From the NCBI GenBank assembly GCA_015493505.1, contig WGDA01000065.1, positions 1 through 54,960 of the forward strand: DNA of 54,960 nt. The letters run 5' to 3'. The DNA comes from Pseudomonadota bacterium (GTDB lineage: Bacteria > Desulfobacterota > S145-22). The position numbers and the translations under genes were made by a program. A model generated the notes under the pieces. It was not told where the DNA came from, searched no databases, and saw only the letters and a program-made list of their open reading frames with translations. Of the stretch, positions 28,533 to 54,318 are shown in pieces (within the stretch, counting starts at the first letter, position 1; every line of letters begins with the position of its first letter).

Positions 28533-28535
28533 AAT

Positions 28536-29033: not shown

Positions 29034-29051
29034 AGGAAGGGGTATTGTTCA

Positions 29052-37132: not shown

Positions 37133-37133
37133 G

Positions 37134-38825
37134 TTATGGGACCCCTTTCAGGTAGGCGTCATATTCGTTTCTGAAATACTTGAGGGTGGTCAGCACGGGA
37201 TTGGGAGCCGTCTGCCCCAGCCCGCAGAGGGAGGTTTTTTTGATGACACCGGAGAGCTCTTCCAGGGTGGCCATGTCGGATTCTGTTGCCTTTCCGACCA
37301 GGATCTTGTCAAGGAGCATGAGCATGTGTTTCAGCCCTTCCCGGCAGGGGACGCACTTTCCGCACGACTCCTCGTTGGTAAATCCGATGAAAAACCGTGC
37401 CGTGTCCACCATGGAGGTGAGCTCGTCCATCACGACAACCCCTCCCGAACCCATGATGGATCCGACGGCCGTCAGGTGTTCATAATCCATGGGGGTGTCG
37501 AACAGAGAGGCGGGGATACACCCCCCGGAGGGGCCGCCTGTCTGAACAGCCTTGATTTTACGCCCCTCGATCCCGCCGTTTCCAACATCATAGACAAGGG
37601 TTTGGATGGGTGTTCCCAGCGGCACCTCGACCAGCCCGACACGCTGGACCTCGCCCACGAGGGAAAAGACCTTGGTGCCACTGTTTTTCTCTCCGCCGAT
37701 TCGTGAGAACCAGGCGCCGCCTTTCTGGATGATGACGGGGATATTCGTCCACGTCTCCACGTTGTTGATGTTGGTGGGCATTCCCCAAAGCCCTTTCTGA
37801 GCGGGAAAGGGAGGACGAGGCCTGGGACGTCCCGTTTTCCCCTCGATAGACGCGATGAGGGCGGTTTCCTCGCCGCAGACGAACGCCCCCGCACCTTCCG
37901 CGATGGTCAGTTCAAAGCTGAAATCCGTTCCGAAGATATTTTTTCCGATCAGTCCGTAATCCCGTGCCTGCGCGATGGCCCGGGTCAGCCGCTGGATCGC
38001 AAGGGGGTATTCCGCGCGCACATAGATGACACCCTCACGCGCCCCGATGGCGTAAGCCCCGATAAGCATGCCCTCCAGGATCATGTGCGGATCGCTTTCC
38101 ATCTCATTCCGGTTCATGTAAGCGCCGGGGTCACCTTCGTCCGCATTGCAGATGATGTATTTCTGGAGACTCTTTTCCTGCTTCGTGAAGTTCCATTTCA
38201 TCCCGGTGGGGAATCCGCCGCCACCCCTGCCGCGAAGCCCGGAAGCGATGACTTCCTCGATCACCTCTTCAGGGGTCATGGCCGTGAGGGCCTTGTGGAG
38301 TGCGCTGTATCCCCCCACCGCGATGTATTCCTCGATCTCTTCCGGATTGATGAGTCCCGCGTCGCGAAGGACGATTTTCCGCTGCGGAGCGAAGTAGGGG
38401 ATCTCGTCATACACGGGGATGTCCTCGAAACCGGTGCCGAAGACGAGCTTTTCCCCCACGATGGGGTCCCACTCTTCGACACGGCAGAGGGCGAGATCCT
38501 GCGGGACCGTTTCCGCGGCCACGGCTTCGACGATTTTTTCGGCATCCGTTTCCGCGACCCGATGCAGGATGATTAGGGATTTTCCCGGAAGATGGATGGA
38601 AACCAGGGGCTCTTCCCGGCAATACCCGATGCAGCCGGTTCGAGTCAGGAGAACCTGGAGGTTTCGTTGCGACAAGGCGTTTTTCAGCGCCGCAAAGACT
38701 TTGTCACCTCCCGCCGCGATGCCACAGGTGGCCAGCCCCACCGTGATCCGGGGGACCCCCGGGAAAAGCCTCCGAACGGATTGAGACCTGACTTTTTCCA
38801 GATCGGCTTTGGTTTTAAGTTTAAT
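37134..38825 (-). CDS. NuoF/HydB-like FMN/NAD(P)H-binding diaphorase subunit with N-terminal thioredoxin-like Fe-S domain
   Basis: GLRGRGGGGFPTG, NADEGDPGAYM, FVCGEETAL, NNVET, ESCGKCVPCREG, LCGLGQTAPNP. Frame stays open 28 codons upstream of the track's GTG (38741), to ATT 38825 / ATC 38828. Confidence 0.88.
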   Translation of the reverse strand: MKLKTKADLEKVRSQSVRRLFPGVPRITVGLATCGIAAGGDKVFAALKNALSQRNLQVLLTRTGCIGYCREEPLVSIHLPGKSLIILHRVAETDAEKIVEAVAAETVPQDLALCRVEEWDPIVGEKLVFGTGFEDIPVYDEIPYFAPQRKIVLRDAGLINPEEIEEYIAVGGYSALHKALTAMTPEEVIEEVIASGLRGRGGGGFPTGMKWNFTKQEKSLQKYIICNADEGDPGAYMNRNEMESDPHMILEGMLIGAYAIGAREGVIYVRAEYPLAIQRLTRAIAQARDYGLIGKNIFGTDFSFELTIAEGAGAFVCGEETALIASIEGKTGRPRPRPPFPAQKGLWGMPTNINNVETWTNIPVIIQKGGAWFSRIGGEKNSGTKVFSLVGEVQRVGLVEVPLGTPIQTLVYDVGNGGIEGRKIKAVQTGGPSGGCIPASLFDTPMDYEHLTAVGSIMGSGGVVVMDELTSMVDTARFFIGFTNEESCGKCVPCREGLKHMLMLLDKILVGKATESDMATLEELSGVIKKTSLCGLGQTAPNPVLTTLKYFRNEYDAYLKGVP

Positions 38826-39318
38826 GATGATTTCCCTCCCAACCGAATTGTTTCAGAATCGACGGAATCCGCTCGGGGGTGACGTATCCGAAGATTTTGT
38901 TGTCGACCCGCAGAACAGGGGCCATGCTGCACGCCCCGAAACAGCGGGCCGAGGTAAGCGTATATTCTCCGTCGTCCGTCGTCAAAAGAAATTTTCCGTC
39001 CCGTGTCGTTTCGTCCATTTCCACGCCAAGGTGGTGTTTCAGTGATGCAACAAGTTCCGGCGCCCCCTTGACATGGCAGGCGGTTCCCATGCAGACCGTC
39101 ACCACGTGCCTGCCCAGAGCCTCGAGGGTGAAAAAGGAGTAAAAGGTGGCAATACTGTACAGCTCCGACAGCGGGAGCTCCAGCCTTTTGGCGAGGAGTT
39201 TCAGCACGTCTTTCGGAAGATACCCCATCTCCCGTTGAATATGCTCGAGAATGCCGAGGATTTTCCCAGTGGGGGTGGGGTATCTCCCGATGATTTCTTC
39301 CAATCGCTGAGGTTCCAT
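38821..39318 (-). CDS. NuoE/HydC-like [2Fe-2S] subunit
   Basis: IATFYSFF, CMGTACHVKG, CFGACSMAP; ATG directly abuts the cooS stop. Confidence 0.92.
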   Translation of the reverse strand: MEPQRLEEIIGRYPTPTGKILGILEHIQREMGYLPKDVLKLLAKRLELPLSELYSIATFYSFFTLEALGRHVVTVCMGTACHVKGAPELVASLKHHLGVEMDETTRDGKFLLTTDDGEYTLTSARCFGACSMAPVLRVDNKIFGYVTPERIPSILKQFGWEGNHH

Positions 39319-41211
39319 TTAGATACCGAGCCCTTTTCGTTTTTTCTCAATGACCTCTTCCAGAATGTCCGCCGCCTTGACGGGATCGGGTTCCACGGCA
39401 AAGGCGGCGTTGATGAGCCCGTTGAGCCCTTCCGTGAGCAGGTTGATGACATTCGGACTGCCGAAAATCTTGGGTGGCACATCCAGGACCGTGAAGACTC
39501 CGGAGGCCACAAAGTAGGCGCCGATGGAGATGGCTTTCTGGGAATACCATTCGGGCGCGGCGCCACCCAGGGGCAGGTCTTCAATCCCGACGTTCAGCTC
39601 CTTGGCGATATTGGCCGCCAGAACGAGGATGCGGGAGCAGTCCACGCAGGAACCCATGTGAAGAATCGGTGGAATCTTCAGGGCTTCGCAGACGGAGCGC
39701 AGCCCATCTCCCGCCAGGCTGGCCGCTTCCGGCACCAGCAGGCCCGCCTTGCCGCTGGCGATGGCGGCGCATCCGGTTTCCACCACCAGGATGTCCCGTT
39801 TGATCAGTTCCTTCCCCAGGGTGATGTGCCCGTAATCCTGCTTGACTTTGGGATTGTTACACCCCACGATTCCGACGGCCCCCCGAATCTTCCCGGCGAC
39901 GATGGCGTCGATGAGAGGTTTGTAGGAACCGCCCAGCGCCCCCCGGATGGCCTCTTCGGAGAAGCCCGCCATCATCTTCATGGGTTTGTCGGGGATTCTT
40001 ACCCGGTCGGGGTTCCGGTTGGGATAGTTTTCGATGGCCAACTTCACGATTTCCTTGGCGGTGTCCAGGGCGTTTTCAGGGTGGAACTCCATGTGGGTCG
40101 CGCCCGGAACCTTGGACAGCGCGCTCGTGGAGACCACCTTTGTGTGGTAACACTTTGCCGTGTCAGTGATGGACGGAAAGATACACTGATAGTCGATGAC
40201 CATCACCTCGACGCTGCCCGTCGCGATGGCCAGTTCCTGATCCAGCTCGTTCCCGGCAATGGGGATGCCGTGCCGCATGAGAAGCTCATTTCCCGTGCAG
40301 CACATCCCGACCAGGTTGATGCCCTTCGCTCCCTTTTCCTTCGCCAGCTTTTTCAGGTCGGGATCGTCGGCCGCGATAACCACCATCTCCGAGAGGATGG
40401 GGTTGTGGCCATGCATCACGATGTTGACCTCGTCCTTTTTGAGGACTCCGAGATTGGCCAGTGCCGTGTTGGGAGTGGGGGTGCCAAAGAGGATGTCCGA
40501 CCCCTCGGTGGCCATCATGGATCCTCCCCAGCCATCCGAAAGGGACGCCCTCAGGGCATGGAGCAGGATGTTGGCGTAATCCGCCCCAACCCCCATGTGC
40601 ACCCGGTGCATCGCTTCGACAATCTCACGATCCACGCTTCGAGGGACGATTCCCAGCTTTTTCCACATCTCCTGGGTCTTGGCTGGGGCCCGCCTGGAGA
40701 GCTGAATCTCGTTTTTAATGGTGCCAAACTCCTCCAGCATGGCCAGGGCGAGGGCCTTTGCCATCTCTTCCTTGCTTTTGCCTTCCGTTTCTATCCCGTA
40801 TTCCGTCGCCACGGTTTTCAGCTTTTCGGCATCCAGAATCTGATACCCCTGAGATTTCCCTTCCGCCGTCTCCAGAAGGACCTGGATAACCTCTCGGCCA
40901 TGATCTGAATGGGCGGCCGCGCCCGTGGCCAGGTCATCCAGCAGGTTTCGGGCGGTGATCAGATCGTTGGTGGCGCCACAGACGCCCCGTTTTGGCTCCC
41001 CTCCGAAGGGGTCGATCCGGCATGGCCCCATGACGCATCGGTTGCAGCAGATGCCCAATTGCCCGAATCCGCACTGAGGCTGCTGTTTCCTCAGCCGGTC
41101 CCAGGCGGTTTCGATGCCGTCTTCCATGGCCTTTTGCACGATCTCCTGATCGGTTTTGTCCAGGCATCTTTTCTCGGCCTCTTCATTGAGAACTTTTGGA
41201 TCAATATACAT
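39319..41211 (-). CDS. cooS: Anaerobic [NiFe] carbon monoxide dehydrogenase catalytic subunit
   Basis: D/B cluster QCGFGQLGICCNRCVMGPC...VCG; AHSDH; C-cluster ligands HGHNP, GMCCTGNE, DYQC, VGCNNPK, TGCA, GSCVDC; SQKA. Confidence 0.96.
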   Translation of the reverse strand: MYIDPKVLNEEAEKRCLDKTDQEIVQKAMEDGIETAWDRLRKQQPQCGFGQLGICCNRCVMGPCRIDPFGGEPKRGVCGATNDLITARNLLDDLATGAAAHSDHGREVIQVLLETAEGKSQGYQILDAEKLKTVATEYGIETEGKSKEEMAKALALAMLEEFGTIKNEIQLSRRAPAKTQEMWKKLGIVPRSVDREIVEAMHRVHMGVGADYANILLHALRASLSDGWGGSMMATEGSDILFGTPTPNTALANLGVLKKDEVNIVMHGHNPILSEMVVIAADDPDLKKLAKEKGAKGINLVGMCCTGNELLMRHGIPIAGNELDQELAIATGSVEVMVIDYQCIFPSITDTAKCYHTKVVSTSALSKVPGATHMEFHPENALDTAKEIVKLAIENYPNRNPDRVRIPDKPMKMMAGFSEEAIRGALGGSYKPLIDAIVAGKIRGAVGIVGCNNPKVKQDYGHITLGKELIKRDILVVETGCAAIASGKAGLLVPEAASLAGDGLRSVCEALKIPPILHMGSCVDCSRILVLAANIAKELNVGIEDLPLGGAAPEWYSQKAISIGAYFVASGVFTVLDVPPKIFGSPNVINLLTEGLNGLINAAFAVEPDPVKAADILEEVIEKKRKGLGI

Positions 41212-41235
41212 GGCTTCCCTCCTTTCGTAGGGGTC

Positions 41236-41853
41236 TTAATCCCTGAATATGCCGATGTCGGCGATTGATTTCATGATATCCCGGTAGGCCTGGATGTTGG
41301 GCGGGACCTCAGGCACCTCTACCTCCGCCCCGGAGGGCCGCAGGATCTTGAAGGTAAAATCCTTTCGATTCGTTCGAATGAGGTCATTCACGTCACCAAA
41401 CTCCAGGGCGCCGGTTTTGCACGCCTCCACGCAGGCCGGGATTCTTCCCGTCCTTTGCCGGTCGATGCAATGGTCGCATTTTGTGTTCACGTTCCGGTCG
41501 AGGGCGATCTGGTAAGTTTTGTCGAACTGGATGATCCCGAAGGGGCAGACCATGGCGCAGGCCGCGCACGCGATGCATTTCGCGTAATCCACGATGACAG
41601 AATCCGTTTCCGCGTCACGTTGCAGCGCGCCCGTTGGGCAGACCTGCAGGCAGGGAGCGGGGTCGCAATGGCGGCACCGGTTGGGGAAGGTCAAAAGGCC
41701 CGGCCCCACCTCCACGTGAATCCTCGGCTTCGGGATAGGGTCTTCCGAGACCGCCCCGAAAAGTGTTTTATTCTGAGAGTGTTCGATGGCGCACGCCACT
41801 TCACAGTGCCGGCAGCCGATACATCTTTCCGGCTTGACCATAACGGTGTTCAT
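41236..41853 (-). CDS. cooF: CooF-like 4x[4Fe-4S] electron-transfer protein
   Basis: CIGCRHCEVAC, CRHCDPAPCLQVCP, CIACAACAMVCP, KCDHC...PACVEAC; GGAGGTG RBS before ATG 41853. Confidence 0.9.
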   Translation of the reverse strand: MNTVMVKPERCIGCRHCEVACAIEHSQNKTLFGAVSEDPIPKPRIHVEVGPGLLTFPNRCRHCDPAPCLQVCPTGALQRDAETDSVIVDYAKCIACAACAMVCPFGIIQFDKTYQIALDRNVNTKCDHCIDRQRTGRIPACVEACKTGALEFGDVNDLIRTNRKDFTFKILRPSGAEVEVPEVPPNIQAYRDIMKSIADIGIFRD

Positions 41854-42018
41854 GATGTCACCTCCTTTTTTTACAAAGATAAGGTTTAACCGGGTGCCAC
41901 GGGGAGCCGTTTCCATATTCATAAAGGTTCAACAGGGTATTCTCCTTCACACCTTTATCCGGATGTGGCACATATTCCCCTCACAAAAACGAATTGTTCG
42001 GACTCAAAACAAAACTGT

Positions 42019-43282: not shown

Positions 43283-43378
43283 GGAAGTGGTTAGGTCACT
43301 GGTGGGCCTCCTGGACTTCAAATCCAGTGGTCCCGTGAAGAGCGGGACGGCGGGTTCGATTCCCGTCCACTTCCGCCA
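43283..43378 (+). tRNA. selC: tRNA-Sec (UCA)
   Basis: 8-bp acceptor stem GGAAGTGG/CCACTTCC, anticodon loop CT-TCA-AA, long variable arm (GTCCCG-TGAAGAG-CGGGAC), GGTTCGATTCC T-arm, G-CCA end; 96 nt. Confidence 0.95.
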
Positions 43379-43641: not shown

Positions 43642-44154
43642 TTGGGGAAAATATTCCATAAAACTTTAATTGGGATGGGTTCAAACGTAGGGGACAGGGT
43701 GGCAATGTGCTGTGCCGCCATTGAACGCCTGAGAGTACATCCGTCGATTGAAGATGTCAGGACGTCACCGTTTTATGAAACGGCCCCGGTTGGCGTGACG
43801 GAACAGCCTCCCTTTCTCAACCTGGCAATTGAAGCCCGAACGACACTTTCTCCAACGGATCTCCTTGCGACACTCAAAAATTTGGAACAGGAGCTCGGAA
43901 GGGTGAGGCGATTTCGCTGGGGTCCCCGGGAGATCGATCTGGATATCCTGCTTTATGATTCACTGATCTTGTCGACCGATCGCTTGACAATCCCCCATCC
44001 GGAAATGCATAAACGGGCTTTTGTGCTGGTCCCCGCGTGCGATATCGCGGCAGACTGGCCACACCCCGTTCTCCAGAAGCCTTTGGATGCCCTTTTAAAC
44101 GCTGTATCCCTTGAAGAGGTGACGCCTTACCGGGGGCCTGTTCCATGCGTTTGA
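43642..44154 (+). CDS. folK: 2-amino-4-hydroxy-6-hydroxymethyldihydropteridine diphosphokinase
   Basis: GMGSNVGD, YETAP, FLN, RWGPREIDLDILLY, IPHP, RAFVLVP. Confidence 0.95.
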   Translation: MGKIFHKTLIGMGSNVGDRVAMCCAAIERLRVHPSIEDVRTSPFYETAPVGVTEQPPFLNLAIEARTTLSPTDLLATLKNLEQELGRVRRFRWGPREIDLDILLYDSLILSTDRLTIPHPEMHKRAFVLVPACDIAADWPHPVLQKPLDALLNAVSLEEVTPYRGPVPCV

Positions 44155-44411
44155 TTCTCTACGCGATTCTGGCATTTGTGATTTATTACTTGTTCAAAGG
44201 GCTTTCTGGGAAAGGAACACAGATGCCTCGAAGGAGGAGCGAACAGCCTCCAGAGGCGGGAAAAGAGCTGAAAATGGACCCTGTATGCGGAACTTATATT
44301 CCGGAGGACACGCCATATCGCTTGAGACATAAGGGCACGACCCATTATTTTTGTAGCGAAGAATGCCTGAAGACTTACAAAAAACAGATTGCCGAGGGAA
44401 AGACGGAGTAA
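44145..44411 (+). CDS. Small membrane-anchored YHS/TRASH-domain protein
   Basis: N-terminal TM helix; DPVCGTYIP...YFCSEEC. Confidence 0.85.
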   Translation: MRLILYAILAFVIYYLFKGLSGKGTQMPRRRSEQPPEAGKELKMDPVCGTYIPEDTPYRLRHKGTTHYFCSEECLKTYKKQIAEGKTE

Positions 44412-45373: not shown

Positions 45374-46492
45374 ATGGCCGGCCAAAGAGGGGTCCTTGTT
45401 CCGTTAAAGGCATTTGCCCTCAGCCGCGGGGCGCTGTTTGTGTTCGCGTGGGTTACCCTTGCACTTTTCCCCATCAAAAGCGGTAAGCGATACTGGCGCG
45501 CCTTTCCCCATAACACCGCGCTGGATGGATGGGCGCGGTTCGATTCAGGGTGGTATGCAAGAATCGCAAAGTATGGGTATCAGAATATCCCGATGGGAGA
45601 TGGGCAGGATACGAATTTTTTCCCCATGTATCCATTGGTGATCCGGACGGTCGGGAAAATAGTGGGAAATATTTACCTCGCCGGGATCATCGTTTCAAAC
45701 GCCGCTTTTTTGCTTGCCCTGATTGGCTTGCATGGGCTGGTTGTCAAAAGGTATGGTCCGGCGCTCGCGAAAAGAACGGTGACCCTTCTGGCCTTCAACC
45801 CCTTTTCCTTCTTTTACAGCGCCGTTTACGCGGAGGCGCTGTTCCTGTTCTTTCTCGTTTACGCGTTCTATCTCTGTGAAAACCGGAGGTATTTTCTCGC
45901 GGGGGTTTCCGCCGCCTGCGCGGGAGCGACCAGGAATCTCGGCGTCTTTGCCTTTGTGGGGCTGGGATTGTTGGCTCTAAGGCAAAGGGAGAATGCCCCA
46001 CGACGCCTGGAGGCCAGGGCGCTTTGGCTGCTTCTTGCCGCGGTGGGGCCCCTGGCGTACAGTGTTTTTTTGTGGATTCGGTTCAACGACCCGCTCCTTT
46101 TTCTCCACGCGCAGCGGGCATGGGGCACGTTTAGCCCGTTGGGAAATTTAACCCATATCTTCAACACGTTTCATACCAATCGATTTCTGGCATTGGGACG
46201 CCTGGCGCTGTTTCTGTTACACGCGGGGGTCGGGATTTTTTCTATTCTGCTGGTACTGAAAGTGGGGAAGTTTTTGAAAATGCCCTATGTGATTTTCTCT
46301 CTTTTACTTATCCTCCCCGGCTTTTTGAGGCTCACAAGCCTGGGGCGGTACGTAATGGTGGTGTTTCCGGTCTTCATCGCGCTTGCGATGGTGACTGACA
46401 AAAGATGGGTGTACAGAGGGGCTCTCGCCGTGGAAGGCTGTCTGCTCCTCCTGCTCTCTTTAATGTTTACCCACTGGTACTGGGTGGCGTAG
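45374..46492 (+). CDS. GT-C membrane glycosyltransferase (PIG-V-like mannosyltransferase)
   Basis: RFDSGWY..IA..GY, FFPMYP, YAEALF, QRAW; multiple TM segments. Confidence 0.8.
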   Translation: MAGQRGVLVPLKAFALSRGALFVFAWVTLALFPIKSGKRYWRAFPHNTALDGWARFDSGWYARIAKYGYQNIPMGDGQDTNFFPMYPLVIRTVGKIVGNIYLAGIIVSNAAFLLALIGLHGLVVKRYGPALAKRTVTLLAFNPFSFFYSAVYAEALFLFFLVYAFYLCENRRYFLAGVSAACAGATRNLGVFAFVGLGLLALRQRENAPRRLEARALWLLLAAVGPLAYSVFLWIRFNDPLLFLHAQRAWGTFSPLGNLTHIFNTFHTNRFLALGRLALFLLHAGVGIFSILLVLKVGKFLKMPYVIFSLLLILPGFLRLTSLGRYVMVVFPVFIALAMVTDKRWVYRGALAVEGCLLLLLSLMFTHWYWVA

Positions 46493-47723
46493 GGATTGTG
46501 AGGGTGTTATCCATAGTCAACTCACGTCCGGTTTCCCGTCGGTAGATTTGGGCGATAAGGTTTGTGTCGATGGCCTCCGCGTCTATCTTGATGACCTTCA
46601 CATTCTGGCTGCTGAGGACATATTCCGGCCCTTTCCCGTGAAAGGGTTCACGTGTCAGAACCACGTCAACCCCTTTCGAAGTCAGGTGTTCGGCAACCCT
46701 GATTCCCTTTCCTCGCTCCAGATGGGTAAAGGGATTGGGCGTGGTTTCCATCCGAAGTATCCGGTTGTTCCCGCGATGGATCTCTATCCATCCGATATAC
46801 GGGGCTTCCCCAAAGTGCTCAGAGACACGCCAGTGAGAGTCATCTGTAAGCATGGCTGCAATTGCAAAGGTTTCCTTGACCGTTGGCTCGTAATGCAGGA
46901 CAATCCGGTCGGCCTGCGGAACCTGTGAGCGGACCTTTTCAGTAATTTCCTCGATAATTCGATGCGCGTGGGCAAAATCTTTCGCGTTCACGATTAGCGT
47001 CCCCTCGATAAAGGTAAAACTGCCGGAGTTTCTCCCAATGATTTCACGGATGTCCGTGATAGCGGGATGCGCGGAGATAATCTCCCGGATACGGGTCAGG
47101 GTTTGGGCATCGATAGAGGCATCCAGCAGCACGCGGACGGATTCGAGGAGGATGTCCCAACCCGCTTTCAGGATGAAGGCAATGACGATAACGGTGGCGG
47201 CTTTCTCCGCGGGAAAATCGAACAGAGAACCAACCAGCCCCAGGAAAACAACGGCGGACACGACGGCGTCCATGCGGATATGCCGGCCGTCCGCCTTCAG
47301 AGCGGGAGAGTTTTCTATTTTTCCCATTTTAATCTCGTAAGTGGAGAAAAGATAGGATGAACACGCGGCAATTCCCGCTGAGGCCATGGCTATGTAGGGA
47401 TGGGTAAGGTGAAAATACCTGCGTTCAAAGAAGATTTCTCGAAAAATCTCGTATCCCGTTAAAAAAATGATGAAAGAAATGCCCACGGCGATGAGGTTTT
47501 CAACCTTGTACAGGCCAAACGGGAAGTTTTGTGATTTGCGGTTGGATATTTTGACTCCGATTAAAAGCGCGATGGAGGAAACGATATCCGTGGAAGAGTG
47601 AATGGCGTCAGCGATCAGCGCGATACTCCCTGAAAGAAGTCCCATTCCCAGTTTCAGGATGAAAAGAAAACTGTTCAGAACGATGGAAAGCGTGGCAACC
47701 TTTGTTTTCGCTGAAAACTTCAT
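46467..47723 (-). CDS. Cation diffusion facilitator with C-terminal NifB/NifX-like domain
   Basis: ADAIHSSTD and ADGRHIRMD metal sites, GLYKVE, CDF dimerisation domain, then EHFGEAPY...GKGPEYVL. Start set to ATG 47723. Confidence 0.88.
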   Translation of the reverse strand: MKFSAKTKVATLSIVLNSFLFILKLGMGLLSGSIALIADAIHSSTDIVSSIALLIGVKISNRKSQNFPFGLYKVENLIAVGISFIIFLTGYEIFREIFFERRYFHLTHPYIAMASAGIAACSSYLFSTYEIKMGKIENSPALKADGRHIRMDAVVSAVVFLGLVGSLFDFPAEKAATVIVIAFILKAGWDILLESVRVLLDASIDAQTLTRIREIISAHPAITDIREIIGRNSGSFTFIEGTLIVNAKDFAHAHRIIEEITEKVRSQVPQADRIVLHYEPTVKETFAIAAMLTDDSHWRVSEHFGEAPYIGWIEIHRGNNRILRMETTPNPFTHLERGKGIRVAEHLTSKGVDVVLTREPFHGKGPEYVLSSQNVKVIKIDAEAIDTNLIAQIYRRETGRELTMDNTLTIPTPPSTSG

Positions 47724-47828: not shown

Positions 47829-47857
47829 TTGACAATAACCATATACCATATTATATT
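47829..47857 (+). promoter_or_regulatory. Sigma70 promoter of the MerR-NifX-MinD operon
   Basis: TTGACA-N17-TATATT. Confidence 0.65.
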
Positions 47858-47888: not shown

Positions 47889-48221
47889 ATGGGAAAGGGG
47901 ATCTATCCGATTGGGGTCGCAGCGGATTTGCTTCAGGTGCATCCGCGAACATTGAGAATCTATGAACAGGAGAATCTTATCAAACCGGAGAGAAGGAACG
48001 GCCGGCGATACTATTCGGACGAGGATCTGGAGTACATACGATGTATCCGGAAACTGATTCACGAAGATGGCATCAACCTGACGGGGGTTAAAAGGCTGAT
48101 GGAGGTGGCACCATGTTGGAAGGTTCGCGGATGCCGGAGAAGACAGTGCGGCCGTTTTCACAAGGCGGGTCCAATGACAAGGCGGCGACGAGGTGGCAGC
48201 GTTGGAAGAGATAATTCTTAG
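47889..48221 (+). CDS. MerR/HspR-family regulator with Cys-rich C-terminus
   Basis: YPIGVAADLLQVHPRTLRIYE, RRYYSDEDL, GINLTGVK; tail CWKVRGCRRRQC. Confidence 0.85.
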   Translation: MGKGIYPIGVAADLLQVHPRTLRIYEQENLIKPERRNGRRYYSDEDLEYIRCIRKLIHEDGINLTGVKRLMEVAPCWKVRGCRRRQCGRFHKAGPMTRRRRGGSVGRDNS

Positions 48222-49068
48222 CGTTTTGTGTGACAACATGGCGGCCATGAAGGAAGGGATACGGGCGGAACACGGCTTTTCCGCGTTTCTGGAATGGGGT
48301 GACCGGAAGGTCCTCTTTGACACGGGACAATCGGATATCTTCTGGCACAACGCCGAGGTGATGGGGTGCGATGTGGAAAGCGCGCAAAAGGTTTTGGTGA
48401 GCCATGGCCATTATGATCATACCGGTGGATTGGGGAGGCTGGCGCGGCCCAATCGGGCTGTAACGGTTATCGCGCACCCGGCGGTTTTTACCCCGCGTTA
48501 CAAGAAGCAGAAAGACGGGTCTATGAAATATATCGGGTGCCCCTATAGCCGGGATTTTCTCGAGAGCCGGGGCCTGCGTTTCAGTTTTGTAGAGAGCCGG
48601 GTCGAGGTGGTGGATGATGTCTTTTTCGTCTGCGGAATACCTCAGACGACAGATTTCGAAAAGGGGGATCCTCTCCTGATGGTGAAAAACCGGGAGGGTG
48701 AATTTGAACCGGACCCATTTTTGGATGACGCCGCCATGTACGCAAGGACCCCGGAGGGACTTGTGATTGTCCTGGGTTGTTCCCATCGAGGCGTCATAAA
48801 TATCTTAAGATATATCTTGACTTTGGAAGGTGACGTTCCTATCTTAACCATAATCGGAGGAACGCATCTGTCCAGAAGCAGCCGGGAGCAGCGTGAGGAG
48901 ACGATCGACGCCCTGCGGGCGTTAAATCCGAGAATGGTCGGTGTGTCACATTGCACGGGCACAGAGGCGACAGACGCGATGCGCCACGTCTTTGGCCAGA
49001 GGTTCTTCAGGGCCATGGCGGGCGTGAGAGTGACGATAAATCAGAAGGGAGGGAGTGTAATTCAATGA
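48193..49068 (+). CDS. MBL-fold metallo-hydrolase (COG1237-like)
   Basis: EHGFS, LFDTG, SHGHYDHTGG, GCSHRG, GGTH, HCTG; TTG 48202 is an alternative start. Confidence 0.88.
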   Translation: MAALEEIILSVLCDNMAAMKEGIRAEHGFSAFLEWGDRKVLFDTGQSDIFWHNAEVMGCDVESAQKVLVSHGHYDHTGGLGRLARPNRAVTVIAHPAVFTPRYKKQKDGSMKYIGCPYSRDFLESRGLRFSFVESRVEVVDDVFFVCGIPQTTDFEKGDPLLMVKNREGEFEPDPFLDDAAMYARTPEGLVIVLGCSHRGVINILRYILTLEGDVPILTIIGGTHLSRSSREQREETIDALRALNPRMVGVSHCTGTEATDAMRHVFGQRFFRAMAGVRVTINQKGGSVIQ

Positions 49069-49241
49069 GTTCGGAAGAGAAAATCAAGCAGAGGATCCAG
49101 GAAGTTTCAAAGGAAGGGAAAATCACCTGTACAGCGGCCCACGAAGTGGCAAAAGAGCTGGATGTGCCCATCGGGAAGGTGGGGCAATTGATTAACCAGT
49201 TAAACCTGAAAATTATCGCCTGTGAACTGGGATGTTTTTAG
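49065..49241 (+). CDS. Hypothetical 58-aa Cys-containing protein
   Basis: ATG overlaps MBL TGA, GGAGGGAG RBS; MSSEEKIK...ITCTAAHEVA...KIIACELGCF. Confidence 0.75.
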   Translation: MSSEEKIKQRIQEVSKEGKITCTAAHEVAKELDVPIGKVGQLINQLNLKIIACELGCF

Positions 49242-49261
49242 GGACGTGAAAGGAGACAGCA

Positions 49262-50164
49262 ATGGCTGAATGTAAAGAAAGCACCTCTTGCAGCACGTGT
49301 GGAAGCGCATCAAGCTGCAGTGTGGATGAAAAACAGCGCCATGAGCAGGAGCTTCTGGCGAAAAAGCTTGAATCGATCGACCACCGCCTGGCGGTTATGA
49401 GCGGGAAGGGCGGGGTTGGTAAGACGACCGTGGCCGTCAACCTGGGCGTCACCCTGGCGCGGGAAGGCCTGAACGTGGGCCTGATGGACGTGGATATCCA
49501 TGGCCCCAACGTTCCAAAGATGCTGGGGATTGAAACACGCCGCCTGGAAGGGAGCGAGCAGGGTGGCATCAACCCCATTGAAGTCTTTCCCAACTTCAAG
49601 GTTGTGTCCATGGCGTTTCTTTTGCAGGACAGGGACACACCCGTGGTATGGCGGGGCCCGTTGAAACATTCGCTGATTCAGCAGTTTGTCAAGGATGTCA
49701 ATTGGGGGCATCTGGATTACCTGATTATCGACCTGCCTCCGGGGACGGGAGACGAACCCTTGAGTGTGGCGCAGGTCATTAACAAGATGGATGGGAGCAT
49801 TATCGTGACCACCCCTCAGGACGTGGCGCTCCTCGATTCGAGAAAATCCGTGACCTTCAGCCGGCAGCTCCAGGTGCCGGTGATTGGGATTGTTGAAAAT
49901 ATGAGTGGGTTGATCTGCCCGCACTGTGGAAAGGAAATTGACCTGTTCAAGGTCGGGGGTGGCCGGAAGGCCTCTCAGGAATTGGGTGTCCCCTTCCTCG
50001 GGAGCATCCCGATTGATCCTGAGATTGTACAGGACAGCGACCGTGGCGCGCCGTTTGTGATGTCACATCCTGATTCGAAGGCCGCTCAGGCTTTCAAGGA
50101 AGTGGTGAAAAATGTGAGGGCGTTTGTGGAACAGCCTGAAAAGAACGCCGCTTCTCAGGCTTAA
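49262..50164 (+). CDS. mrp: Mrp/NBP35 (ApbC) Fe-S carrier ATPase
   Basis: [42 protein letters not shown]; four-Cys N-terminus. Confidence 0.93.
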
Positions 50165-50201
50165 TGGTTGCGCAGAAGTTAGAACCCATCAGGAGGAAGA
50201 C

Positions 50202-50747
50202 ATGGAACTTTTGGAAGCTATCAGGACGCGACGGACCGTGCGGAGGTTGAAGGCTGACCCCATCAAGGAAGAGCAGCTTAAAAATATCCTTGAGGCGATT
50301 CGATGGACGCCTTCCTGGGCGAATACCCAGTGTTGGGAGGTCGTAGTCGTCAGGGATCGAAGCGTGAAGGAAAAACTGGCTGAAACCCTTTCACCGACCA
50401 ACCCGGCGCTGAAGGCGGTCACGAACGCCCCAGTCGTGCTGGTGATGTGCGGGAAGAGGGGGCTTGCCGGGTTTAAGAAAGGGGAAGTCACGACGGACAA
50501 GGGAGACTGGTTCATATTCGATGTGGGCGCGGCAACGTTGAATGCCTGCCTGGCGGCCCATGCGCAGGGACTGGGATCGGTGATCGTGGGATTGTTCGAT
50601 TCGAAAAAAGTGGAAGAGATTCTCGGAGTTCCTGAAGGTGTTTCAGTCGTTTCCCTGATTCCCATCGGCGTTCCGGAAAAGGTTCCCGAAGGGCCCAAGC
50701 GTAAACCGCTGGAAGAATTTGTGTTTGAAAATCACTATCAATCATAA
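50202..50747 (+). CDS. Nitroreductase family flavoprotein
   Basis: IRTRRTVR, PSWANTQCW, AHAQGLGS, PIG; AGGAGG RBS. Confidence 0.9.
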   Translation: MELLEAIRTRRTVRRLKADPIKEEQLKNILEAIRWTPSWANTQCWEVVVVRDRSVKEKLAETLSPTNPALKAVTNAPVVLVMCGKRGLAGFKKGEVTTDKGDWFIFDVGAATLNACLAAHAQGLGSVIVGLFDSKKVEEILGVPEGVSVVSLIPIGVPEKVPEGPKRKPLEEFVFENHYQS

Positions 50748-50753
50748 GGAGGT

Positions 50754-51164
50754 ATGCTGAATATGCCAAGAATCGCGTTTTCTTCTGAAGACAACGTGGG
50801 GTTGGAGGGGCAGATGAGCGGCCATTTCGGCCGGTGTCCCTATTTCACCCTGGTGGATGTGGAAGATGGAAAGATTCAGAATGTGACGGTTGTGGAGAAT
50901 CCCTTTTATAACAATCATCAACCGGGGCAGGTTCCCGCGTTTATCCACTCGCAGAAGGTGGATGTCATGATCGCGGGCGGGATGGGGCCCATGGCCATTA
51001 ACCTTTTCAACAGCAACGGGATCGAAGTTGTAACGGGATACATGGGGACCATTCAGAACGTGCTGGACGCCTATCTTAAAGGGGAGGCGAAAGGGGCCAG
51101 CGGCTGTGCGGACCATGAAGACCATGACCATCACCATGGCCATGGCGGGGGATTTGTGCATTAA
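50754..51164 (+). CDS. NifB/NifX (MTH1175-like) family protein with His-rich tail
   Basis: HFGRCPYF, IAGGMGP; C-terminus CADHEDHDHHHGHGGGFVH. Confidence 0.88.
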   Translation: MLNMPRIAFSSEDNVGLEGQMSGHFGRCPYFTLVDVEDGKIQNVTVVENPFYNNHQPGQVPAFIHSQKVDVMIAGGMGPMAINLFNSNGIEVVTGYMGTIQNVLDAYLKGEAKGASGCADHEDHDHHHGHGGGFVH

Positions 51165-51180
51165 GTGAGGATGCGAACCG

Positions 51181-51537
51181 ATGAAAATTGCCATTTCTTC
51201 CACTGGTGAAGGGCTGACCGCGAAAGCGGATCCAAGGTTTGGGCGTGCGCCGTACTTCGTGCTGTTGGATGACGCAGACTCTGATGTGCCAGGCGTGACG
51301 GTCCTGAAAAACGAGGCGGCGGAGGCAGCCACCGGGGCGGGAACCGAGGCGGCCCGAAGAGTTGTGGAGGAAGGGGCACATGTTGTCATCTCTGGCTCTG
51401 TGGGGCCTAATGCTTTCCAGGTCTTTGAGCGAATGGGAATACCCGTTTATCTGATTCAGGGAGATATGACGGTTCGGGAAGCCTATGAACGGTATCAAAA
51501 AGGTGAATTAACACGGATGATTATCAAGAGACTGTAA
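51181..51537 (+). CDS. NifB/NifX (MTH1175-like) family protein
   Basis: DPRFGRAPYF, GAG, VISGSVGPNA. Confidence 0.88.
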   Translation: MKIAISSTGEGLTAKADPRFGRAPYFVLLDDADSDVPGVTVLKNEAAEAATGAGTEAARRVVEEGAHVVISGSVGPNAFQVFERMGIPVYLIQGDMTVREAYERYQKGELTRMIIKRL

Positions 51538-51570
51538 CGAAAGGACTCTTAACCGGAAGGGGTGATTTTA

Positions 51571-52137
51571 ATGAAGGTCATTGTAACATCAACGGGACCA
51601 AGCCTGGATGATGAGCTTGATCCAAGGTTTGGCCGGTGTCAGTATTTTCTCCTCGTGGACACGGAAACGATGCGGGTCTTGGAAACCATTTCCAACGAAG
51701 GAATGATGTCCGCGGGTGGCGCGGGGATTCAGGCGGGCCAGCTGGCCGCAAACAAAGGCGCCGAAGCGGTCATCACCGGCAACGTGGGACCCAACGCCAT
51801 ACAGACCCTCCAGGCGGCCGGGATCGGGGTGTATCTGGCACCCGCGGGAACCGTGCGCCAGGCGATCGAGGCATTCAAGCAGGATGCCTTGAAAGGGGTT
51901 TCTTCCGCGACGGTGGACGCGCATCATGGGATGGGGAGCGGTTCGGAGGCGCCCCAGGCCCAGGCATACGGCCCAGGGATGGGAAGAGGCATGGGGCGTG
52001 GGATGGGCATGGGACGGAGATTCCAGTCTCAACCCGCGCCATCACCGGAAATTGATCAGCTACGCGCCGAGATTGACGGGTTGAAGAAAGATCTTTCCGA
52101 GATGAAAGAGATGCTGAAAAAACTGACTGAGAGTTAG
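51571..52137 (+). CDS. NifB/NifX family protein with GRGMG repeats and coiled-coil tail
   Basis: DPRFGRCQYF, ITGNVGPNA; GMGRGMGRGMGMGRR; EIDQLRAEIDGLKKDL. Confidence 0.88.
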   Translation: MKVIVTSTGPSLDDELDPRFGRCQYFLLVDTETMRVLETISNEGMMSAGGAGIQAGQLAANKGAEAVITGNVGPNAIQTLQAAGIGVYLAPAGTVRQAIEAFKQDALKGVSSATVDAHHGMGSGSEAPQAQAYGPGMGRGMGRGMGMGRRFQSQPAPSPEIDQLRAEIDGLKKDLSEMKEMLKKLTES

Positions 52138-52218
52138 GGATGGTTTCTCCGGAGAAGGCCTGGATGGCTGATTCCGGGGCCGTGGAATTAGAAAGTTTGG
52201 TGAAAGGAGGTGTGAACC

Positions 52219-52473
52219 ATGCCAGGATTTGATGGTACAGGCCCAAGAGGTGAAGGGCCCATGACCGGTGGCGGAAGAGGTTTTTGCGCCCGCCCTGCCG
52301 GTTACGGACCCTATGGCGCGGCCGGCCGCTGGTATCCACCTTATGGAACCGGTTATGCCGGATATGGCGGTTGGGGCCGCCCCGTCTATGGCGTGGGCCG
52401 CGGAGGTATCCCCTATGGGGGAGGCCGTGGGCGCGCCTTCGGTGGTGGCCGCGGACGCGGCTGGCGCTGGTAA
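52219..52473 (+). CDS. DUF5320-like Gly/Arg/Tyr-rich protein
   Basis: MPGFDGTGPRGEGPMTGGGRGFC N-terminus; AGGAGG RBS. Confidence 0.8.
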   Translation: MPGFDGTGPRGEGPMTGGGRGFCARPAGYGPYGAAGRWYPPYGTGYAGYGGWGRPVYGVGRGGIPYGGGRGRAFGGGRGRGWRW

Positions 52474-52565
52474 CCCTTAATCACTGGCTGGGGGGAGTTC
52501 CTTCCCTCCAGCCCGTTTTCATCTGTATCCATTGGAAGTTAAATAAATAGGAAAAGGACAAGTGT

Positions 52566-53426
52566 ATGGAAAATACAGTAACCATCACGATAGCCAGCGG
52601 AAAAGGCGGGACCGGGAAGACGCTCGTGGCGACCTCTCTGGCTTTGTCTCTTCCGGAGGGGGTGCAATTTCTTGATTGTGACGTGGAGGCACCCAACTCT
52701 CATATCTTCCTGAACCCTCAGTGGGAAATGGAAGTGCCGACGGGGCTGGTGGTTCCGAGAGTGGATGAATCGGTCTGCACGGCCTGCGGAGAATGCAACC
52801 GCGTGTGCGAATTCAAGGCGATCGTGGTCATCGTTGACAAGGTTCTGGTCTTTGACGAACTGTGTCATGGCTGCGGGGCGTGCACCTATATCTGCCCCGT
52901 GGATGCCATTACGGAGATTGAAAAACCCATAGGTGTCATTCGCAAGGGATCCGCGCGAAACGGGATCCATTTCCTGCAGGGACTGTTGAATATCGGCGAA
53001 CCCATGGCGACACCTATTATTCGCCGGTTGAAAAAGGAGGCCTCTCCGGTCGCGAAGATTACCCTTCGGGATGCCCCGCCGGGGACCTCGTGCCCCGTGA
53101 TTGAGAGCGTGGAGGGGAGTGACTACACGATTCTCGTCACGGAACCAACCCCTTTTGGGCTCAACGACCTGAAATTATCGGTGGGGGTGTGTCGGGAATT
53201 GAATGTCCCCTTGGGAGTGATTATCAATCGTGCTGACGTGGGAGACGCGGGTATTCATGCCTATTGCCGGGAGGAGGGTCTCCCGATCCTGATGGAGATT
53301 CCGCTGATTCGTGAGGTCGCGGAAGGATACGCGAACGGGGTCCCCCTCATCGATGTCCTGCCCCAGTATCGAGACAGGTTCCAGGAATTGTTTGACAAAA
53401 TCCTCAAGGAGGTGCGTCATGGCTGA
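52566..53426 (+). CDS. MinD-superfamily P-loop ATPase with inserted 2x[4Fe-4S] domain (COG1149-like)
   Basis: SGKGGTGKT, DCDVEAPN, CTACGECNRVC, CHGCGACTYICP, DAPPGTSCP, VTEPT. Confidence 0.9.
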   Translation: MENTVTITIASGKGGTGKTLVATSLALSLPEGVQFLDCDVEAPNSHIFLNPQWEMEVPTGLVVPRVDESVCTACGECNRVCEFKAIVVIVDKVLVFDELCHGCGACTYICPVDAITEIEKPIGVIRKGSARNGIHFLQGLLNIGEPMATPIIRRLKKEASPVAKITLRDAPPGTSCPVIESVEGSDYTILVTEPTPFGLNDLKLSVGVCRELNVPLGVIINRADVGDAGIHAYCREEGLPILMEIPLIREVAEGYANGVPLIDVLPQYRDRFQELFDKILKEVRHG

Positions 53427-54291
53427 GGCTAAAACATCTCCCCGGCAACTGACCATTATCAGCGGAAAAGGCGGGACGGGGAAAACGACCCTGACGGCGG
53501 CGTTCGCCCAGTTAACGGAAAACAAGGTCATGGCGGATTGTGATGTGGACGCTGCGGATCTGCATCTGATCCTTGAACCCACGATTAAAAAGTCTGTTCC
53601 CTTTTACGGGGGACGGAATCCGGTCGTGGATCTGGATGCCTGCACGAAGTGTGGCGTCTGCACGGAAGTTTGCCGGTTCGGCGCCATACATGATGGGGTG
53701 GTGGACCTGTTTGCCTGTGATCATTGCGCCCTTTGCGCCCACGCCTGCCCTGAACAGGTGATAAAGATGGAAGACGCCCATTCCGGAGACTGGTTTGTCT
53801 CGGAAACCCGCTTCGGTCCCATGGTACACGCGAGGCTGGGAATCGCCGAGGAGAACTCCGGAAAGCTGGTGACGATGGTGAGAAAAGAGGCGATGGAGGT
53901 AGCCAAAAAGGGTTCGCGTTCCTGGATTATCATTGATGGTCCTCCGGGGGTGGGGTGTCCGGTCACGGCCTCCCTCGCGGGGGTTGACAAGGTCCTGGTG
54001 ATAACGGAACCGACCCTGTCGGGGATTCATGACATGGAGCGCGTGCTGAGCCTGGCGACACATTTCAATATTCCCGCCCAGGTTTGTATCAACAAGTTTG
54101 ACATACACCTTGCCAATACGCGACAGATCGAGGCGTATTGCCTGGAAAAGGGGATTGAACTTGTGGGAAAAATCCCCTTTCATCGGGGGGTTATCGAGGC
54201 AATGGTGAATGGGAAGACTGTCATCGAAACAGATGTCCCGGAGGTTGCCCCCGCCATTCATCAGATCTGGGAGCGGGTGATGGGGGAGTGA
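53419..54291 (+). CDS. Second MinD-superfamily P-loop ATPase with inserted 2x[4Fe-4S] domain
   Basis: SGKGGTGKT, DCDVDAAD, CTKCGVCTEVC, CDHCALCAHACP, DGPPGVGCP; AGGAGG RBS, overlaps the previous stop. Confidence 0.9.
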   Translation: MAEAKTSPRQLTIISGKGGTGKTTLTAAFAQLTENKVMADCDVDAADLHLILEPTIKKSVPFYGGRNPVVDLDACTKCGVCTEVCRFGAIHDGVVDLFACDHCALCAHACPEQVIKMEDAHSGDWFVSETRFGPMVHARLGIAEENSGKLVTMVRKEAMEVAKKGSRSWIIIDGPPGVGCPVTASLAGVDKVLVITEPTLSGIHDMERVLSLATHFNIPAQVCINKFDIHLANTRQIEAYCLEKGIELVGKIPFHRGVIEAMVNGKTVIETDVPEVAPAIHQIWERVMGE

Positions 54292-54318
54292 CGGAAACTT
54301 TCCCCCAGTATTTTCCGT

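Follow-up and report, generated by a model that had tools for sequence, protein, structure and literature searches.

The DNA analysed, contig WGDA01000065.1 of assembly GCA_015493505.1 (54,960 nucleotides; a Pseudomonadota bacterium placed by GTDB in Desulfobacterota, S145-22) and referred to here in its entirety as the window, carries on its + strand between positions 47889 and 54291 an array of eleven tightly packed open reading frames (ORFs), with intergenic gaps of -29 to +92 nt and, for most of them, good ribosome-binding sites. Assignments made with Pfam and NCBIfam, the equivalog cut-offs of the latter serving as the family test, confirmed each of the components named in an initial annotation of this DNA (Table 1): a MerR-type regulator, a hydrolase of the metallo-β-lactamase (MBL) fold, a 58-aa Cys protein, the iron-sulfur (Fe-S) carrier Mrp, a nitroreductase, three NifX-like proteins (NifX1, NifX2 and NifX3, with the signature residues HFGRC, RFGRA and RFGRC respectively), a DUF5320-like protein and two MinD-type ATPases (MinD1 and MinD2), together with a divergent cation diffusion facilitator (CDF) gene fused to a NifX-like domain (CDF-NifX). 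Eleven + strand genes were counted, however, rather than the ten proposed. Nitrogenase structural genes, which the same annotation had recorded as absent, were not found among the window ORFs scanned.

Identical genes are present in the metagenome-assembled genome GCA_027055435.1, and a relative whose MinD1 is 85% identical (locus L004) has retained the whole array, with the CDF-NifX gene at the corresponding position. Since it is kept whole in that relative and its core recurs across phyla, the array is no chance grouping. A scan of one genome per species detected a MinD1 relative in at least 532 species genomes, bacterial as well as archaeal, and the best 80 genomes, taken for a census of the locus, represented more than 15 phyla from both domains, including Chloroflexota, Planctomycetota, Omnitrophota, Desulfobacterota, Acidobacteriota, Ignavibacteria, Bathyarchaeia, Methanocellaceae and Thermoplasmatota, among others. 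When all ORFs of these loci were searched with the window proteins and counted within 6 kb of the MinD1 relative, a MinD2-type paralogue was present in 78 of the 80 and NifX-like genes, usually two, in 74; Mrp was found in 43 (21 of the 29 loci with full flanks), a DUF5320-motif ORF in 38, an MBL homologue in 14, an Mrp-NifX fusion (the Orp9 architecture considered below) in nine and CDF-NifX in two. The nitroreductase, the MerR protein and the 58-aa protein, each recorded in 0/80 loci, are lineage-specific additions.

Pfam searches conducted on 150 of the 458 remaining unlabelled same-strand neighbours returned Radical_SAM (11), NifU_N/IscU (10), DUF5320 (10), Zn_ribbon_8 (6), DUF134 (5), DUF364 (4) and FUR (4) as the leading families, while the nitrogenase cofactor genes nifB/E/N/H/D/K were absent from the 25 commonest neighbour families. 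The characteristic order in relatives of 57–60% identity was Mrp, two NifX, DUF5320, radical SAM, MinD, NifU_N, MinD, AF_2379 and Zn-ribbon.

Table 1. Features of the array and of other loci in the window
Feature	Position	Strand	Basis and remarks
CDF cation efflux + ZT_dimer + C-terminal NifX-like (PF02579)	46467..47723	-	divergent from array; Cation_efflux 1.1e-38, Nitro_FeMo-Co 2.1e-10
Putative sigma70-like promoter TTGACA-17-TATATT	47829..47857	+	11/12 consensus match; upstream of MerR gene
MerR/HspR-like regulator	47889..48221	+	Pfam MerR_1 2.3e-18
MBL-fold metallo-hydrolase, TM1679 / 2p4z type	48193..49068	+	Pfam Lactamase_B; alternative start 48202
58-aa 3-Cys protein	49065..49241	+	conserved Cys C22, C53, C57; C-terminus CELGCF; start overlaps MBL stop
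Mrp/NBP35-type Fe-S carrier ATPase	49262..50164	+	Pfam ParA/NUBPL 1.9e-100
Nitroreductase-family flavoprotein	50202..50747	+	Pfam Nitroreductase 3.2e-30
NifX-like 1 (HFGRC ... CADH, His-rich C-terminus)	50754..51164	+	PF02579 2.9e-22
NifX-like 2 (RFGRA, Cys-free), MTH1175/ORP type	51181..51537	+	PF02579 1.3e-18
NifX-like 3 (RFGRC + 76-aa tail)	51562..52137	+	PF02579 5.1e-23; alternative start 51571
DUF5320-like 84-aa protein	52219..52473	+	DUF5320 21.3 bits; AAGGAGG strong ribosome-binding site
Terminator-like hairpin, 12 bp, GC-rich	52486..52513	+	pattern scan, centroid fold; between DUF5320-like gene and ATPase pair
MinD1: MinD-type P-loop ATPase, inserted 2x[4Fe-4S] ferredoxin domain	52566..53426	+	Pfam CbiA/ParA + Fer4 families
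MinD2: paralogue of MinD1	53419..54291	+	Pfam; start overlaps MinD1 stop by 8 nt
Terminator-like hairpin at array end	54282..54304	+	pattern scan; convergent hisS (Pfam) next
Molybdenum cofactor (Moco) block	24398..29990	+	MoeA, MoeA + PBP_like fusion, MoaA, MoaC, MOSC+MoCF_biosynth protein
CooS-type carbon monoxide dehydrogenase (CODH) operon	36332..41922	-	CooF-like ferredoxin, CooS, NuoE-like, NuoF-like, 2Fe-2S/4Fe-4S subunits
tRNA-Sec gene	43283..43374	+	Rfam, 76.2 bits
Small YHS-domain (metal-binding) gene	~44145..44411	+	= L001:1394-1660; between HPPK and transaldolase genes, TatA gene upstream

Correspondence with the components of the ORP complex

The orange protein (ORP) has been known since about 2000 and the ORP complex since 2011. 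In Desulfovibrio vulgaris Hildenborough this complex consists of Orp3, Orp4, Orp5, Orp8 and Orp9, the last being identical to MrpORP; Orp3 and Orp4 are paralogous ATPases with two [4Fe-4S] ferredoxin motifs each, and Orp8 is the NifX-like orange protein, the D. gigas homologue of which contains a non-covalently bound [S2MoS2CuS2MoS2]3- cluster (PMC6345978). Orp3, Orp4 and Orp8 co-purify, and MrpORP, whose Di-Nase domain binds a [3Fe-4S]-like cluster, transfers Fe-S in vitro both to apo-Orp3-Orp4-Orp8 and to aconitase (PMC6345978). The description of the present genes as an uncharacterised system of a kind without assigned function leaves the existing ORP literature out of account (PMC6345978, PMC8359166 and Fievet 2011 as cited there).

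Searches of the literature on DUF5320, COG1149 and COG1433 yielded nothing relevant, and the link to ORP was established by virtue of a match to the NCBIfam model NF041136 (MrpORP), membership of which is defined by a score of at least 450 bits and which describes an Mrp P-loop domain fused to a Di-Nase domain. The window Mrp covered model positions 1-258 of 365 with a score of 376.8 bits, and NifX1 covered positions 273-364, the Di-Nase part, with 80.2 bits, so that neither reaches the cut-off by itself. Fused Mrp-NifX proteins encoded beside MinD1/MinD2 homologues in two other loci, L083 and L085, scored 518.5 and 504.8 bits respectively and contain the HFGHCE/CDH motifs described in PMC6345978; as both exceed the cut-off, these loci are members of the ORP family. 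NifX1 can be aligned with the Di-Nase domains of the fused MrpORP proteins and keeps both HFGxC and the terminal C(A)DH, and it is the nitroreductase gene, for which no NCBIfam model reached its cut-off, that now sits between Mrp and this detached domain. The array as a whole very probably belongs to the ORP-type family.

The Mrp itself exhibits an N-terminal Cx5Cx2Cx5C motif, a four-Cys motif such as occurs in Nbp35, in addition to a CPHC motif; its candidature as an ApbC equivalog was rejected (245 against a cut-off of 348). Comparison of the three NifX-like proteins with solved structures identified the TM1290-like entry 1t3v as the best match for NifX1 (1.2e-24), MTH1175 (3.9e-18) and ORP 2wfb (4.5e-16) for NifX2, and the D. 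gigas orange protein 2wfb for NifX3 (8.5e-20, residues 4-107). NifX3 is a composite protein in which the ORP-type globular domain is followed by a cationic segment of GMGR repeats and then by a C-terminal helix corresponding to the C-terminal half of DUF5320, the tail scoring 26.3 bits over model positions 20-99, just below the cut-off of 27. A NifX domain with such a tail also occurs in nine other loci of varied lineages. The Met-Gly-Arg repeats (GMGRGMGRGMGMGRR) at 51907-52041, which encode NifX3 residues 116-160, recur in the NifX tails of L083, L070, L053 and L088; their regular Met spacing might serve the binding of a soft metal such as Cu(I), or flexibility only. The NifX3 orthologue in L004 (8475-9633) seems to be split or miscalled, with two partial matches and gene calls of 140 and 50 aa, which could be due to a frameshift or an assembly error.

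MinD1 (286 aa) and MinD2 (290 aa), each of ~31 kDa, share 34% identity (3e-46, BLASTP) and the same 12-Cys pattern, which includes two CxxCxxCxxxC motifs; the invariant Cys residues of MinD1 are 38, 71/74/77/81, 100/103/106/110, 176 and 234. Both contain the deviant Walker A sequence GKGGTGKT with its signature Lys, a feature typical of ATPases that dimerise on nucleotide binding, and in both the DCDVE segment of the switch I region is immediately followed by the inserted ferredoxin domain. A further invariant Cys lies seven residues past the Walker B Asp (D169...C176 in MinD1; C180 in MinD2), presumably the same spacing as that between D125 and the cluster ligand C132 of NifH. Foldseek searches with an AlphaFold2 model of MinD1 matched archaeal MinD, FleN/FlhG, Cfd1, ATPase-type HypB, BchL and NifH about equally.

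Evidence for the partnership of these two ATPases was provided by gene fusions. A survey at E <= 1e-30 gave 899 representative clusters, and among the best 150 of these, which were examined, 33 were tandem MinD1-MinD2 fusions of at least 550 aa (580-700 aa, e.g. P0171-P0183), always in that order, and one was a NifX-MinD1 fusion (P0184). It is therefore argued that the ATPases form a heterodimer which contacts a NifX protein, and both types of fusion agree with the co-purification observed in D. vulgaris.

The 84-aa protein matched DUF5320 over model positions 1-55, and its score falls short of the Pfam PF17253 gathering cut-off of 27 (full-length members in related loci reach 87 bits), so that the label given in the initial annotation fails on score. 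It stands, nevertheless, on the N-terminal motif MPGFDGTGPRGEGPMTGGGRGFC, which is the DUF5320 family motif and is present in 72 ORFs of related loci; as this motif is common to bona fide members, the assignment is regarded as sound. Both the 84-aa protein and the NifX3 tail are clearly similar to part of the family. The remainder of the protein is a disordered region rich in Gly, Arg and aromatic residues, and the overall composition (38% Gly, 18% aromatic, 13% Arg, one Cys) results in an isoelectric point (pI) of 10.65. Public gene calls disagree on identical DNA, a 70-aa ORF in another frame (L001:9517-9729) being called as opposed to L003:2245-2499; the 84-aa frame is the conserved one, as seen in L004 and in the motif family of related loci.

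In these loci the motif, MPxxDGTGPxGxGPxTGRGxGxC, heads four kinds of C-terminal part: G/R/W repeats followed by a coiled coil, which is the canonical DUF5320; G/R/aromatic repeats only, as in the window; a 2x[4Fe-4S] ferredoxin domain; and a 6-Cys zinc ribbon attached by a G/R-rich linker in proteins of ~76 aa, often encoded directly upstream of MinD1. Proteins of the zinc-ribbon kind were noted in L012, L014 (9748-10005), L017, L018, L025, L028, L030, L037, L038, L057, L060, L061, L077 and others, and the window has its Cys-poor aromatic variant where other loci have the zinc-ribbon protein. The 2x[4Fe-4S] ferredoxin domain was seen fused to the DUF5320 motif or to NifX with a GMGR tail (L053:113-532, L070:8057-8551, L072:1178-2065, L050:861-1661), the same modules being shuffled among the cluster proteins of these four loci. 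A Fur-like protein starting MPRRDGTGP (L026) was not counted as a DUF5320 member, its match being insignificant (E 0.57), and the identification of the zinc-ribbon variants with Orp5/Dde_3197 was dropped, Dde_3197 being reported to resemble a NifX-like protein (PMC10533852).

A possible functional parallel to these Gly-rich proteins is offered by IssA of Pyrococcus furiosus (PF2025), in which a NifX-like domain is followed by a 70-aa disordered tail; Pro, Gly, aromatic and cationic residues abound in this tail, which has a pI of 10.7 and one Cys, and the protein keeps anionic thioferrate as particles measuring 20-300 nm (PMC5524996). By the published criteria for the IssA clade (protein pI >=9, <5 Cys, and >=20% Gly among the final 40 residues), the 84-aa protein, at 38% Gly overall, falls within all three limits but is devoid of a NifX domain.

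After the general CDF superfamily model, the best NCBIfam equivalogs for CDF-NifX, strong matches to which were also recorded in L046 and L079, were the Fe/Mn-type transporters MamB, MntE and MamM, all below cut-off. The MBL protein matched the structures 2p4z (1.9e-38) and 3h3e (2.7e-35). The 58-aa protein, of which only four sequence clusters are known, corresponded to no Pfam or NCBIfam family at cut-off; its AlphaFold2 model (predicted local distance difference test score, pLDDT, 84.6) consists of three helices in a small helix-turn-helix-like fold, with which a fold search of the PDB gave no significant match.

Regulatory features and neighbouring loci

Upstream of the MerR gene, a palindrome, TAAATATTTA, lies 5' of the sigma70-like element, which is a putative promoter recognised by its match to the consensus, and the block comprising both is conserved in L004. 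An inverted repeat typical of MerR operators was not found within the promoter spacer, the upstream palindrome alone being conserved, and an Rfam scan around the cluster revealed no riboswitch. The four Cys residues of the MerR protein, C52, C76, C82 and C87 (PCWxxxxC...C tail), are all invariant down to 42% identity, which suggests a site for Fe-S, redox or metal sensing. Classification as HspR was rejected (NCBIfam NF047375, 77.5 bits against a cut-off of 105, N-terminal DNA-binding part only), the C-terminal Cys motif being specific to a subfamily separate from HspR. A homologue of 47% identity from another lineage (L092) is encoded divergently to a NifX-DUF5320-DUF5320-MinD-MinD-NifX operon. 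Other members of the Cys4 subfamily, L090:6001-6369 (Desulfobacteraceae) and L091:6001-6456 (Desulfobulbaceae), adjoin NrfD-like genes and a second MerR gene; these are located away from ORP clusters, which implies that the subfamily is not reserved for them. A close homologue carries the label Deltaproteobacteria, and the MerR gene was left uncalled in the public annotations L001 and L002. In D. vulgaris, the orp operons are controlled by the sigma54 activator OrpR, in which a PAS-bound [4Fe-4S] cluster restricts their activation to very low redox potentials (PMC8359166). An OrpR-like activator of the PAS-sigma54 kind adjoins the cluster in L009, one of the relatives of 57–60% identity.

Co-transcription of the array, as implied by the initial annotation, is subject to a reservation on account of the hairpin that follows the DUF5320-like gene. 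In L004 a hairpin occupies the same place with different stem bases (compensatory changes) and a T-run; given this conservation, expression of the carrier and storage genes may exceed that of the ATPase pair. The hairpin may bring about attenuation before that pair, or it may divide the array into two separate transcription units, after the pattern of D. vulgaris.

The CODH and Moco loci pointed out in the initial annotation are both present elsewhere in the window (Table 1), the subunit composition of the former suggesting an NAD(P)-linked CODH. No gene for the nickel-insertion ATPase CooC was found in the 55-kb window. CODH genes also occur in or beside some related clusters (CdhA/CdhB, L008:3755-6643; a Prismane fragment, L009:6338-6721; CooS, L085:16029-18053). 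The tRNA-Sec gene implies that the organism makes selenoproteins, and the YHS-domain gene is known only from the gene calls of the identical contig L001.

Proposed function and comparison with known systems

The storage and distribution of iron and sulfide in strict anaerobes, many of which lack ISC/SUF parts and live in sulfide, are poorly understood. The explanation that we favour, and which on balance is probably correct, is that the array codes for an ATP- and redox-gated machine for the storage and delivery of Fe-S, or metal sulfide, under strongly reducing, sulfidic conditions. An Nbp35-like Mrp dimer would use its CxxC motif to assemble or carry a labile [4Fe-4S] cluster and would then load the MinD heterodimer and the associated NifX-like proteins, a loader role that has been shown for homologues. 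The NifX-like domains, two of them of the ORP/MTH1175 type and the third the Di-Nase domain that has become detached from Orp9, may hold anionic metal-sulfur species without Cys ligands, which the cationic tail of NifX3 and the DUF5320-like protein could wrap or template much as the IssA tail does with thioferrate. The MinD pair, combining a dimer switch of the MinD/NifH type with four predicted [4Fe-4S] clusters, would gate transfer for loading or reductive release, a role in ATP-gated electron or cluster transfer being the one we infer for it. Expression would be set by the Cys4 MerR protein, and CDF-NifX would export excess metal.

Storage and transfer of an inorganic cluster is considered the best reading because of the ORP match, the conservation, the fusions, the Fe-S neighbours, the IssA-like composition and expression in relatives. 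Thus the D. alaskensis genes Dde_3197-3199 vary in concert with feoA and flavodoxin (PMC10533852), and in Methanococcus voltae two IssA-like NifX proteins, Mvol_0689 and Mvol_0693, become more abundant, as do radical SAM proteins encoded nearby, when thioferrate-like material and electron paramagnetic resonance signals appear (PMC8516115, PMC9431491). The earlier proposal of a nitrogenase-independent assembly, repair or storage line for a metal cluster is upheld in so far as the genes form a recurrent set for the handling of metal-sulfur species that is independent of nitrogenase, though not in that part which made the CODH and Moco loci candidate clients.

A number of points weigh against this reading. 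The role first put forward for the Desulfovibrio ORP complex was one in cell division. Equivalence to the D. vulgaris complex is judged from published descriptions, the MrpORP model and the ORP structure. The ferredoxin insert of MinD1 is poor in the AlphaFold2 model (pLDDT <50 for residues 80-109), and searches by sequence showed the ferredoxin-bearing MinD family to be without a solved structure, the nearest being generic MinD, Cfd1, HypB and NifH; since the insert is poorly modelled and no close structure has been solved, gating by the ATPases is an inferred mechanism. The likeness to the IssA tail is one of composition only, and NifX3 was rejected as a member of the IssA clade, its single Cys lying within the limit but its pI being 5.44 and only 1 of its last 40 residues (2.5%) being Gly; the resemblance of NifX3 to IssA is put forward as one of possible working and not of clade membership. 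Finally, the metal could be Mo, Cu or W rather than Fe, ORP having been isolated with a Mo-Cu-S cluster.

A more far-reaching version, speculative and rather unlikely, would regard ORP-type clusters, the present one included, as a widespread ATP- and redox-gated store of Fe-S mineral in anaerobes. The DUF5320 proteins and NifX tails, with their RGG/aromatic or GMGR repeats and in many cases a coiled coil, would template or condense granules of thioferrate-like (FeS2-)n or another anionic metal sulfide, the motif MPxxDGTGPxGxGPxTGRGxGxC would be a docking tag for the ATPase/NifX core, and MinD1-MinD2 would act as a NifH-type ATP-driven reductase releasing Fe-S to Mrp and thence to apo-proteins. 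If true, this would unite the work on ORP with that on IssA and would explain the polar foci of MrpORP.

In an unlikely but live alternative, the MinD pair is a positioning or cell-division system whose Fe-S and NifX parts only sense redox and so couple division to anaerobiosis. The orp regulon has been labelled 'cell division' (PMC4641369, PMC6345978), MrpORP is located at the cell pole, Orp3 and Orp4 have been reported to have MinD-like C-terminal amphipathic helices (PMC6345978), and helix 267-285 at the C-terminus of MinD1 exhibits the hydrophobic spacing of an amphipathic helix. The good fold matches to archaeal MinD and FleN/FlhG are offset by those to Cfd1, HypB, BchL and NifH, which fit about as well, and assignment as septum-site MinD was rejected for both proteins, the scores being far under the equivalog cut-offs (MinD1, 47.6 against 201.75 for minD_arch; MinD2, 63.5 against 212.9 for minD_bact). 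Moreover, genes for NifX, Mrp, NifU_N, Fur and radical SAM proteins make up the neighbourhood, with no division or min genes in the 25 commonest families, and the family spans bacteria and archaea with differing division machineries. The buffering or detoxification of thiometallates (Mo/W/Cu sulfides), with NifX proteins sequestering clusters, the Met-rich GMGR segment binding Cu(I) and the CDF protein exporting cations, is a decidedly improbable reading for which the cluster isolated with the D. gigas orange protein, a close relative of NifX3 and NifX2, may be adduced, as may the five Met in the 45 residues of the NifX3 segment, with similar tails elsewhere, and the response of orp-type genes to copper surfaces in D. 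alaskensis (PMC10533852). The genes concerned, Dde_3197-3199, nevertheless change together with feoA and flavodoxin, an iron-response pattern (PMC10533852); the neighbour families NifU_N and Fur indicate iron or Fe-S and not Mo or Cu, MrpORP and its Di-Nase domain bind Fe-S clusters, and the nearest relatives of the CDF protein are of the Fe/Mn type.

The clients proposed in the initial annotation would make of the array a dedicated maturation line for the Ni-Fe-S C-cluster of CODH or for the Mo/W enzymes of the nearby Moco genes. CooC and HypB, ATPases of the MinD class, are metal insertases; the fold matches include HypB of the ATPase type, a cluster containing Mo is bound by ORP, the window combines a CooS-type operon with the lack of CooC, and related clusters have CooS adjoining the core (L085) or CdhA/CdhB inside (L008). 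Neighbourhood support is nonetheless wanting, a single one of the 80 loci having CODH and 1-2 of them having Moco genes, the latter counted over whole loci. The upstream genes of L004 are unrelated to those of the window (CYTH, PNP, HIT, glycosyltransferase), five unrelated protein-coding genes and the tRNA-Sec gene separate the CODH operon from the array on the opposite strand, and in the many lineages that have the core, no sign of a tie to CODH is apparent. The proposal is accordingly held to be very improbable, although the rare adjacency to CODH may be of weight in those lineages in which it occurs. Barely credible is the suggestion that the DUF5320-motif peptides are ribosomally made precursors which radical SAM enzymes would modify, in a pathway served by the ATPases and NifX proteins: small peptides with a conserved leader-like N-terminal motif are indeed present, and radical SAM, the commonest extra neighbour, lies between the DUF5320 genes and MinD1 in L006-L009, but the window cluster and many other loci lack a radical SAM gene, the motif also heads proteins of 100-160 aa with coiled coils, zinc ribbons or ferredoxin domains, tails of the DUF5320 type are fused to NifX domains, and no protease or export genes were seen.

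Returning to the storage and delivery machine, the comparative results place its core far beyond Desulfovibrio, define the two ATPases as an obligate pair whose usual companions are Fe-S scaffold and iron-regulation genes, and reveal proteins with the chemistry of the IssA thioferrate tail as regular members of the clusters. These features, together with the shared N-terminal motif and the Cys4 MerR protein, make the long-standing gap in the understanding of ORP function directly testable.

Among known systems, the NifH/BchL/CfbC reductases and the CooC/HypB insertases share with the MinD pair the fold class and the deviant Walker A, its pairing being shown by the fusions; unlike NifH, BchL and CfbC, the pair has an inserted 2x[4Fe-4S] domain and is without a catalytic partner of the NifDK/BchNB type. 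The Nbp35-Cfd1, ApbC and Mrp carriers resemble the window Mrp in their ParA/NUBPL family, deviant Walker A and CxxC motif for a bridging cluster, whereas the window protein is encoded together with dedicated partner proteins. NifX, NafY and the C-terminal domain of NifB belong to the same Pfam family (PF02579) and bind complex inorganic clusters non-covalently; the closest solved relatives of the window NifX proteins are ORP, MTH1175 and TM1290 and not NafY, and neither the window nor the common neighbours provide a nifHDKENB context. With IssA the array shares, in NifX3, a globular domain of IPR003731/PF02579 joined to a disordered cationic Gly-rich segment (pI 10.7 for residues 116-160) and, in the 84-aa protein, the composition of the tail (pI ~10.7, Gly, aromatic residues, Arg and one Cys). 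The differences are that the most IssA-like sequence of the window is devoid of a NifX domain, and that NifX3 is acidic overall and ends in an acidic/basic helix in place of a Gly-rich end.

The closest likeness is to the ORP complex itself and the orp operons of D. vulgaris Hildenborough and D. alaskensis G20, with which the array has in common two ATPases of ~31 kDa that fit the published description of Orp3 and Orp4 in having two [4Fe-4S] motifs each, ORP-type NifX-like proteins (NifX3 and NifX2, compared with Orp8), an Nbp35-like Mrp and, here as a separate gene, a Di-Nase module containing HFGxC and C(A)DH, the clustering of the genes and their occurrence in anaerobes. By way of contrast, there is one co-directional array where D. 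vulgaris has two divergent operons; MrpORP is divided between the Mrp and NifX1 genes, which the nitroreductase gene separates; a Cys4 MerR protein and a putative sigma70-like promoter take the place of the sigma54 activator OrpR; three NifX paralogues and CDF-NifX are present, with MBL, 58-aa and nitroreductase genes added; and, as possible further differences, there are a DUF5320-like gene and a NifX protein with a DUF5320-type tail. What is new here, relative to the ORP systems described previously, is the MinD1-MinD2 and NifX-MinD1 fusions, the split Orp9, the substitution of a Cys4 MerR protein for OrpR, and the Gly/Arg(/aromatic)-rich NifX tail together with the DUF5320-like protein.

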